From contig DATKWU010000009.1 in assembly GCA_035529375.1 (NCBI GenBank), positions 223,124 to 287,123 on the forward strand: a stretch of DNA of 64,000 nucleotides. The letters run 5' to 3'. A model generated the notes under the pieces. The model was not told the DNA's origin. It ran no database searches and worked only from the letters and a program-made list of their open reading frames with translations. The stretch is from Patescibacteria group bacterium. Its GTDB lineage: Bacteria; Patescibacteriota; Microgenomatia; PFEM01; JAHIFH01. Shown in pieces: positions 55,862 to 56,077 of this stretch (positions within the stretch are counted from its first letter, which is position 1; each line of letters starts with the position of its first letter). The translations under genes were made by a program, and so were the position numbers.

Positions 55862-55999
55862 ATGAATAACGATATCAGTGATCTGACGAGGATACTGGTG
55901 TTGGGAGGCGGTGGAACATTCGTTCTCTGCGAAAGCCTTGTGATACTCGCTTGCATTGGACTCGCGGGGTGGTATGCTTCCGTCCGAGTCAAAACCTGA
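55862..55999 (+). CDS. Small ORF: 45-aa hydrophobic peptide (MNNDISDLTRILVLGGGGTFVLCESLVILACIGLAGWYASVRVKT) with GG-rich leader-like N-terminus
   Basis: Strong SD GAAGGAGAGAAGGAG 7 nt upstream of ATG; GC-rich codons; intrinsic terminator 26 nt downstream. Not in the ORF track because it is under 60 aa. Confidence 0.4.
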   Translation: MNNDISDLTRILVLGGGGTFVLCESLVILACIGLAGWYASVRVKT

Positions 56000-56024
56000 C
56001 TCAGAAGAGAGCAATAATCACTGC

Positions 56025-56077
56025 CGAGGGCAAAGGGAGCCAACGCTGGTGGCGTTACAACAAAACCAACCGAGGCT
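56025..56077 (+). terminator. Rho-independent terminator (GGGAGCC...GAGGCTCC + TTTTTCTT)
   Basis: GC-rich stem with inner AACGC/GCGTT hairpin, followed by a T-run. Confidence 0.5.

Follow-up and report, generated by a model that had tools for sequence, protein, structure and literature searches.

What does a GC-rich island beside a tRNA gene encode, in a genome whose annotation leaves the spot empty? The question is raised by a 64,000-nt stretch of DNA (the window) from a member of the Microgenomates, within the candidate phyla radiation (CPR), and by a small open reading frame (ORF) in it, here called p45. The frame runs on the forward strand from an ATG at 55862 to a TGA at 55999, lies in the 486-nt gap between a PEGA/SH3-domain gene on the reverse strand (54724-55647) and a tRNA-Cys(GCA) gene on the forward strand (56134-56206), and translates into a 45-residue peptide, MNNDISDLTRILVLGGGGTFVLCESLVILACIGLAGWYASVRVKT, with a single predicted membrane pass. 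A first-pass annotation made from the letters alone had pointed to this unannotated frame, to its GC-rich, atypical codons and to the foreign look of the segment, and these observations hold. Frame and peptide are as quoted there, and no gene is called over the ORF on the 233.8-kb source contig (ENA ERZ27256828 k141_4062333); third codon positions have a GC content (GC3) of 0.56, compared with 0.29-0.39 in nine host genes; and positions 55862-56077, which behave as foreign and accessory, reach a GC content of 0.52 (98.8th percentile; the mean of the window is 0.386). Four independent samples, represented by the source contig and three Logan assemblies, contain this DNA with no change. The explanation that best accommodates these and the following observations, and that we consider probable, is that p45 is a coding gene for a micro membrane peptide, the payload of a cassette swapped between strains, conditionally expressed and with a membrane-active accessory role.

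Is the frame translated at all? About 100 related loci (numbered L005 and so on) were gathered through the M23 peptidase gene, a PEGA alignment and PEGA homologues. One of them, L020, whose PEGA protein is 77% identical to that of the window, has in the corresponding place a frame of 48 codons, MNEVSFIKDFLVLGVGGGFAICETAVLLACGAVVTWYLSVRIKERLTR (tblastn E=1e-10); the locus is seen again in L097-L099 (related to Microgenomates bacterium DG_75). The two peptides share 21 of 44 amino acids at a nucleotide identity of just 54%, their differences fall 18/15/28 on the three codon positions, and synonymous divergence (pS = 0.77, saturated) exceeds nonsynonymous divergence (pN = 0.36). Stops interrupt the remaining two sense frames of the region, and a six-frame comparison gives the sense frame a Smith-Waterman (SW) score of 114 (z=20), with the five others at 70 or below (z<=8.7). 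The first-pass annotation had proposed that a conserved nucleotide sequence lacking a conserved frame would favour an RNA; the outcome is the opposite, as the frame is kept and the nucleotides are not. A frame that persists while its nucleotides diverge indicates that p45 is protein-coding, and comparison of the two sequences makes it very likely that 55862-55999 is a real gene for a membrane peptide. Payload families other than p45 also vary most at the third position, with pS well above pN. In L020 an ORF of 74 aa with two transmembrane segments (two-TM) precedes the homologue, whose start codon, GTG, shares nucleotides with the stop of that ORF; this GTGA overlap, a usual arrangement for translational coupling, suggests that the two are coupled.

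How constant is the gene in its place? The divergent pair of PEGA gene and tRNA-Cys is kept throughout the approximately 100 loci, and most of the approximately 70 in which tRNA-Cys was found have a PEGA-tRNA gap of 40-160 nt without a cassette. Cassettes, studied here as a set of 15, occur in the clade nearest the window and fall into about ten non-homologous payload types, each composed of a two-TM protein of 60-78 aa (class p1) and/or a one-TM peptide of 38-48 aa (class p2); the p1 and p2 frames overlap in several strains, which suggests translational coupling there as well. The nearest relative, L005, has PEGA and M23 proteins 95% and 92% identical to those of the window, yet its payload is unrelated. 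Blastn aligns the flanks of the two loci (window positions 55650-55795 at 80% and 56078-56300 at 91%), leaving between them a variable payload segment (55796-56077, forward strand) without homology to L005: 282 nt in the window versus 471 unrelated nt in L005. Judged by eye, the window cassette is a mosaic, with the 3' part of its leader resembling L105, its ORF L020 and the interior of its terminator L097 and L103. We consider it nearly certain that the cassette is hypervariable and that p45 is its payload.

The individual payloads show how far this variation goes. The window encodes only a one-TM peptide (45 aa), and so does L112 (42 aa). Two products are encoded in L020 (a 74-aa two-TM protein and a 48-aa one-TM peptide), L109 (78 aa and 38 aa), L111 (75 aa and 45 aa), L005 (= L017; 69 aa of an ‘EGCP’ family and 42 aa), L007 (= L019; 69 aa of an ‘NNLxxQPV’ family and 38 aa) and L105-L108 (62 aa of the ‘NNLxxQPV’ family and 43 aa). 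Only one larger protein is present in L018 (67 aa, ‘EGCP’), L103 (60 aa, ‘NNLxxQPV’) and L116 (69 aa); L102 has two two-TM genes, and L104 and L110 have another 62/66-aa family. The p2 peptides share an architecture of acidic N-terminal tail, TM segment and basic tail. In the two-TM proteins of L005 (2387-2593) and L018, the first hydrophobic stretch is directly followed by an (E/Q)-G-C-P motif (FAVEGCPRA and LITQGCPQA). The motif resembles a non-canonical lipobox, and the first ‘TM’ of these proteins may accordingly serve as a lipoprotein signal peptide and be cleaved off.

In this organization the locus is similar to replacement islands such as O-antigen loci and tRNA hot spots, with which it shares conserved flanks, non-homologous and mosaic payloads, a tRNA neighbor and unrelated insertions at the same site in other relatives. 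Unlike them, the cassette measures only 0.3-0.5 kb, holds one or two micro-ORFs and keeps its regulatory frame conserved around the swapped coding part. The other insertions (in L051, L088, L095, L066, L080, L084 and L086; L007/L019, L102 and L110) are of several kinds: genes for Hsp20, GIY-YIG endonuclease-like or DedA/VTT proteins occupy the PEGA|tRNA-Cys intergenic site in more distant relatives, and LAGLIDADG homing-endonuclease ORFs lie between tRNA-Cys and M23 in several genomes. The unrelated insertions at the PEGA|tRNA-Cys site identify it as an insertion hot spot.

The regulatory frame begins with a predicted cassette promoter, P1 (55717-55745, forward strand), made of a -35 element TTGATT (55717-22), a 17-nt spacer and an extended -10 element TG-n-TAGACT (55737-45); its sequence would place the start of transcription near 55751. 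With relaxed settings, a promoter scan puts P1 at an equivalent position in 13 of the 15 cassettes, and P1 also aligns from cassette to cassette; a stricter scan missed it. In 12 cassettes it reads TTGACT-N17-TG-TATATT, a 10/12 match plus the TG extension; the window copy is weaker (8/12). In the leader, of about 110 nt, there is a hairpin, CUAUUCUUUU ... AGAAGAAUAG (55768-55804, forward strand), with a conserved loop, GACAAAGGCGUCAA, a motif that occurs once in the window with no second copy, followed by a U-tract, UUUAUUUUU (55805-55813, forward strand). The hairpin is part of the minimum free energy (MFE) structure both of the window leader alone and of the whole transcript, and of 13 cassette leaders folded one by one, 12 have a hairpin at this position in their MFE. 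RNAalifold on five cassette types detects compensatory double changes at 6 of its 14 pairs, for instance CUAUUCUU/AAGAAUAG in the window versus CUGCCUUU/AAAGGCAG elsewhere. A hairpin and U-tract positioned just past the start site look like an attenuator.

Translation would start from a tandem Shine-Dalgarno (SD) sequence (55844-55859, forward strand), an exact 8-nt duplication of GAAGGAGA with AAGGAG cores at 55845-50 and 55853-58; the purine tract GAAGGAGAGAAGGAG covers 55844-55858. The first-pass annotation was right that a strong purine-rich SD precedes the frame and wrong about its spacing, since the two cores lie 11 and 3 nt from the ATG and not 7. Every cassette ORF in the relatives has a GGAG-type SD 3-6 nt upstream of its start. 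In the MFE of the window transcript the first SD is in a loop, and the second falls in the 3' arm of a local hairpin of 7 bp. The doubling may be the scar of a deletion or recombination event that joined the SD of a lost two-TM p1 gene to that of the retained peptide gene. At the other end, a compound intrinsic terminator (56032-56084, forward strand) consists of an outer stem, AAAGGGAGCC/GGCUCCUUUU, an inner hairpin, AACGC-UGGUG-GCGUU, and a U-run; the hairpin measures 52 nt (56032-56083) and folds at -18.7 kcal/mol, and the U-run extends to 56084. This had been described as a textbook terminator in a feature ending at 56077, a position that falls within the 3' arm; hairpin and U-run are indeed present, in a compound form that a simple terminator scan did not pick up. 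An equivalent hairpin and T-run closes all 14 of the 14 folded cassettes, with free energies of -19 to -43 kcal/mol, and the outer stem occurs in the compensatory variants GGGAGCC/GGCUCC, GGGGUC/GACCCC, GGGGCC/GGCCCC and GGGACC/GGUCCC.

Both neighbors have promoters of their own. That of tRNA-Cys, outside the cassette (56097-56125, forward strand: TTGCTT at 56097-102, N17, TG-n-GAAAAT at 56117-25; TTGCTT-N17-TG-n-GATAAT in relatives), lies directly 3' of the terminator, and its block, AAAAATTGCTTTTTGAGGCTAAAAATGAGATAAT, is both the most conserved stretch of all cassette loci and the sole promoter of the cassette-free ones. That of the PEGA/SH3 gene (55645-55683, reverse strand), TTGCTT-N17-TG-TATCAT, is found in 13 of the 15 cassette loci and ends 7 nt from the ATG, so from its sequence the PEGA/SH3 mRNA is probably leaderless and does not overlap the cassette. 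With its own P1 and terminator between separate PEGA and tRNA promoters, the cassette is thus an autonomous and insulated transcription unit. The gene for p45 is the payload of this self-contained cassette, inserted between the PEGA/SH3 gene and the tRNA-Cys promoter in the order P1, leader with hairpin and U-tract, duplicated SD, ORF and compound terminator.

A further element of the frame is seen in the sister cassettes. In 7 of the 14 tested (L005, L007, L018, L102, L104, L109 and L110), the leader has a box (CCTTGGCATCA or CTTTGGTATC) whose complement lies in a second box directly past the last stop (GATGATGCCAAG or ACCAAGGTG); the pairing beats shuffles in each of the seven (p<=0.04) and both sides change between types. 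L116 is an eighth example, judged by eye. The boxes could serve for long-range closure of the mRNA, or could be a DNA inverted repeat bracketing the payload, and the 5' box can alternatively be read as the -35 element of a second promoter. Fold-back interactions between 5' and 3' ends are a feature of type I toxin mRNAs such as hok. An 8-bp complementarity between leader and ORF in the MFE of the window transcript is within chance expectation by our estimate.

What kind of peptide does the cassette deliver? The first-pass annotation had described it as a hydrophobic peptide, possibly of the membrane, and its composition agrees: the grand average of hydropathy is 0.92, the Kyte-Doolittle maximum over 19 residues is 2.07 (residues 11-29), and hydrophobicity continues from I11 to A39. 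AlphaFold, given the single sequence, models one helix over residues 3-44 (confidence, pLDDT, 80). The peptide is thus predicted to span the membrane once as one long helix, with a TM segment at about residues 11-39 that includes C23, E24 and C31, an acidic N-terminal tail (D4, D7) and a basic C-terminal RVKT tail (R42, K44); by the positive-inside rule its orientation would be N-out/C-in. Residues shared with the L020 homologue are N3, S6, L12-V13-L14-G15, G17-G18, F20, C23-E24, V27, L29-A30-C31, W37-Y38, S40-V41-R42 and K44.

Searches for relatives beyond these loci gave little. The exact peptide has no match in a collection of 15 billion proteins, and a word-indexed protein search yielded zero candidates. 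With phmmer, 1.84 billion representatives gave five matches, all judged spurious: three are giant proteins (3,763-6,436 aa) that align with query residues 2-24, and two are proteins of about 600 aa with several matched stretches. Pfam, PHROGs, NCBIfam and PADLOC, applied to 5-8 cassette peptides, returned nothing at or near threshold, and the described toxin families (Hok, Fst, Ldr, TisB, Ibs, ShoB, TxpA, BsrG, AapA etc.) have no match through Pfam, NCBIfam or PADLOC. The p45/L020 alignment has no relative among 2.9 million viral contigs, and a full-text literature search returned no paper on type I toxins of Patescibacteria or small membrane proteins of Microgenomates. A phage holin or lysis cassette was also considered. 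Class II and pinholin-type holins (~65-95 aa) with small partners do resemble the 60-78-aa two-TM proteins and overlapping one-TM peptides of the sister cassettes, and a peptidoglycan hydrolase gene, that of the M23 peptidase (56293-56991), follows shortly downstream. Unlike in a lysis cassette, however, the M23 gene has its own promoter and is kept in all relatives regardless of the cassette, and the window has no two-TM gene. The idea is unsupported, as PHROG gives no match for p45 (and insignificant ones only for sister proteins) and no viral relative was found.

Could the island be an RNA, or the peptide a secreted one? A structured noncoding RNA was the first guess, as the genome is AT-rich and the GC-rich island adjoins a tRNA; a related idea is a Cys-codon leader peptide that regulates tRNA-Cys, upstream of which two UGC codons lie. 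The ORF would be incidental. The region does fold beyond expectation, with z=-3.4 relative to shuffles for both 55830-56090 and 55750-56085. However, Rfam at its gathering threshold reports tRNA-Cys alone, and at E<=10 nothing that overlaps 55840-56082 on either strand; this, and conservation at the level of codons, with a retained protein frame and a synonymous excess at 54% nucleotide identity, led to rejection of the RNA. Two observations led to rejection of the Cys-leader idea: a separate promoter serves the tRNA, highly conserved after the terminator and the sole source of the tRNA in cassette-free relatives, and several cassette ORFs have no Cys. Either form of this explanation is extremely improbable. 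Equally improbable is one of those raised by the first-pass annotation, which saw a loose resemblance to a double-glycine leader and hence a possible bacteriocin precursor, cleaved and exported by an ABC transporter with a C39 peptidase. Like class II bacteriocins, p45 is small, has Gly-Gly near residues 16-18 and a hydrophobic C-terminal part; its Gly run (15-18) follows I5-S6 and V13 in a way loosely reminiscent of LSxxELxxIxGG, and the putative core has two Cys. Yet no leader or bacteriocin hidden Markov model (HMM) in Pfam or NCBIfam matches at E<=10, and the hydrophobic -4/-7/-12/-15 pattern fails at either cleavage site: after G16 at -7 (R10) and -15 (N2), after G18 at -4 (G15), -12 (D7) and -15 (D4). 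G16 is Val in L020 (G-V-G-G), and the analogues in six other cassettes have no GG. The Gly run is continuous with the hydrophobic stretch and lies inside the predicted TM helix, rather than dividing a leader from a core. No C39 or ABC exporter domain appeared in the 10 ORFs of at least 467 aa scanned, out of 18 window ORFs of at least 400 aa; these encode FtsK, PNPase, DnaK, MurJ, helicases, glycosyltransferases, RNase J and one protein without a Pfam match. The host, moreover, is a member of the CPR, and its genome is small (615 kb for the chromosome of a relative). A bacteriocin precursor is therefore a reading to which we give next to no weight.

The remaining alternatives accept a membrane peptide and differ on what it is for. 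It could be for nothing: having lost p1, the window might retain in its p2 ORF a non-functional leftover that has yet to acquire stop codons. Most cassettes have p1 and the window does not, the duplicated SD resembles a deletion scar, the window P1 is weaker than that of the relatives (8/12 versus 10/12) and the 5'-3' pairing is lost. Such decay is nevertheless very unlikely, given that the ORF retains the motifs common to L020 (LVLG-GG-F-CE-V-LAC-WY-SVR-K) and a strong SD, that L112 has an independent p2-only cassette and that the sequence is identical in four samples. The first-pass annotation had also mentioned type-I-toxin-like peptides and small regulatory membrane proteins, both of which are possible descriptions of p45. 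Type I toxins are typically hydrophobic single-TM peptides of less than 60 aa with a charged tail, unannotated, strain-variable and translated from mRNAs with a long structured 5' untranslated region (UTR). In a classical type I toxin-antitoxin (TA) system, p45 would depolarize the membrane and its mRNA would be silenced by its fold and by an antisense or divergent RNA. As in hok/sok, fst, tisB, zorO and aapA1, the peptide is short, hydrophobic and single-pass with a basic tail, its gene is unannotated, accessory and tRNA-adjacent, and the transcript is predicted to be highly structured, with a long 5' UTR and a partly sequestered SD; the pairing that would close the coding region in seven sister cassettes, and by eye in L116, recalls the fold-back of hok. 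Unlike in hok/sok-type systems, no antisense RNA gene or opposite-strand promoter-like element recurs in the 15 cassettes, where the recurring promoters are P1 and those of the tRNA and PEGA genes; no Pfam or NCBIfam toxin family and no Rfam antitoxin RNA matches; the window transcript has no 5'-3' pairing; and two translationally coupled ORFs, here a one-TM peptide often coupled to a two-TM protein, are unusual for the class. A classical TA pair is accordingly unlikely. A benign role fares better, although we still consider it rather less probable than a part in conflict: p45 would be harmless and have an accessory or regulatory part like MgrB, AcrZ, KdpF and CydX, which it resembles in size, in its single TM helix and in being overlooked by annotation. 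As a subunit it would bind a bigger partner, either a membrane protein or an enzyme of the envelope, and modulate it; the partner might be tied to the flanking cell-wall genes. The TM helix is under purifying selection, the neighborhood consists of envelope-type genes (PEGA/SH3, M23 peptidase, MraY-like, UbiA), the promoter scan of the 15 cassettes detected no antitoxin, and p1-only and p2-only cassettes are viable, so that neither product is needed to protect from the other. Known modulatory proteins of the MgrB type are, by contrast, conserved and co-inherited with their partners, whereas this payload is absent from most relatives and is swapped between strains with 95% identical neighbors; its foreign codon usage, and the promoter and terminator that insulate the cassette from its neighbors, also speak against a modulatory subunit.

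The explanation that we prefer, a coding micro-gene delivered by a swapped cassette, can be put together as follows. The PEGA|tRNA-Cys slot in this Microgenomates clade holds a strain-variable, mosaic set of genes for tiny membrane proteins, of which the window has the p2-only version, p1 having presumably been removed by a deletion that left the doubled SD as its scar. Expression would be gated at the level of RNA by the attenuator-like leader hairpin and U-tract, the partly buried SD and the highly structured transcript; for this gating, suggested by the predicted folds, we see the chances as about even. Once made, p45 would be an accessory factor specific to its strain, with the membrane as its site of action. 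That it does so as a toxin-like or exclusion-type peptide in conflict with a phage or a competitor, rather than in housekeeping, is a tentative proposal by analogy, to which we give slightly less than even weight.

Several observations weigh against parts of this explanation. The toxin-like role rests on analogy, and no hint of function comes from relatives in protein families, PADLOC, PHROGs, viruses or large databases. L020 is the one statistically solid homologue of p45, gene callers pass over the ORF, and antisense frame -1 is open in both genomes in the same wobble phase, albeit at the far lower score (SW 70, z=8.7). Apart from the window-L020 pair and a few weak links, the p2 peptides cannot be shown to be homologous to one another, and they are therefore taken as architectural analogues only. 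In the window transcript the 5'-3' pairing does not rise above shuffles. No antisense promoter is conserved across the 15 cassettes in the promoter scan, which cannot exclude a small RNA, and so the type-I-toxin reading is unproven. Finally, p2-only, p1-only and p1+p2 cassettes all occur, and the existence of the first two argues against an obligatory toxin/immunity pair.

Could the slot itself be the system? A bolder and distinctly doubtful proposal is that it is a dedicated ‘micro-island’, in which a conserved regulatory frame presents interchangeable, recombination-shuffled micro-genes for membrane-active peptides. It would give CPR bacteria an RNA-gated system, so far undescribed, that works as a toxin, in exclusion or in kin discrimination. 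The frame would comprise the promoter, the attenuator-like hairpin, the mRNA-closing 5' and 3' boxes and the compound terminator, and p45 would be one allele, acting without a protein antitoxin.

CPR bacteria have tiny genomes, the differences between their strains are mostly unexplained and small ORFs are systematically overlooked in their annotation; the p45 locus is a concrete case of this. Should the peptides prove to be membrane-active effectors, the locus would represent a compact module for conflict or strain recognition in episymbiotic bacteria and a source of new families of membrane-active peptides. Even if they are benign, GC-rich islands of AT-rich CPR genomes can be coding micro-genes and not noncoding RNAs. 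The 15 cassettes provide the basis for a search model, and the bacteriocin reading of the locus is corrected.

The tRNA-Cys(GCA) gene next to the cassette varies in its own right. Over approximately 70 related loci (L005-L096 and the window) it occurs in two forms, a standard one with GG in the D-loop and a T-loop UUCGA, and a non-canonical one with a D-loop lacking GG (e.g., AGUAGCUCA) and a T-loop UGCRA, with G for U at position 55. The D-loop and T-loop traits go together in every locus but L044, L083 and L095, which suggests a re-paired tertiary contact between D-loop and T-loop. The window has the non-canonical form. The possibility that this form travels with the cassette was rejected because the same tRNA type is present in the cassette-free loci L021, L036 and L052.

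Beyond the tRNA, the M23 gene has an extended -10 promoter, TGCTATAAT, at 56224-32, directly followed by a highly conserved hairpin and U-run (56241-56273). Its position behind the promoter places the tRNA-Cys terminator at the 5' end of the M23 leader, where, from the sequence, it could attenuate M23. The GenBank titles of L005-L009, which include a complete chromosome of 615 kb (OZ246397.1), say ‘uncultured Gammaproteobacteria’; at the protein level the sources are Microgenomates/Patescibacteria, and the titles look like mislabels. The other GC-rich islands of the window are longer ORFs and not further micro-ORF cassettes: on the reverse strand, they encode a 263-aa protein (38710-39501), a 154-aa protein with a Pro/Glu/Thr-rich tail (62625-63089) and a 227-aa multi-TM protein (63264-63947).

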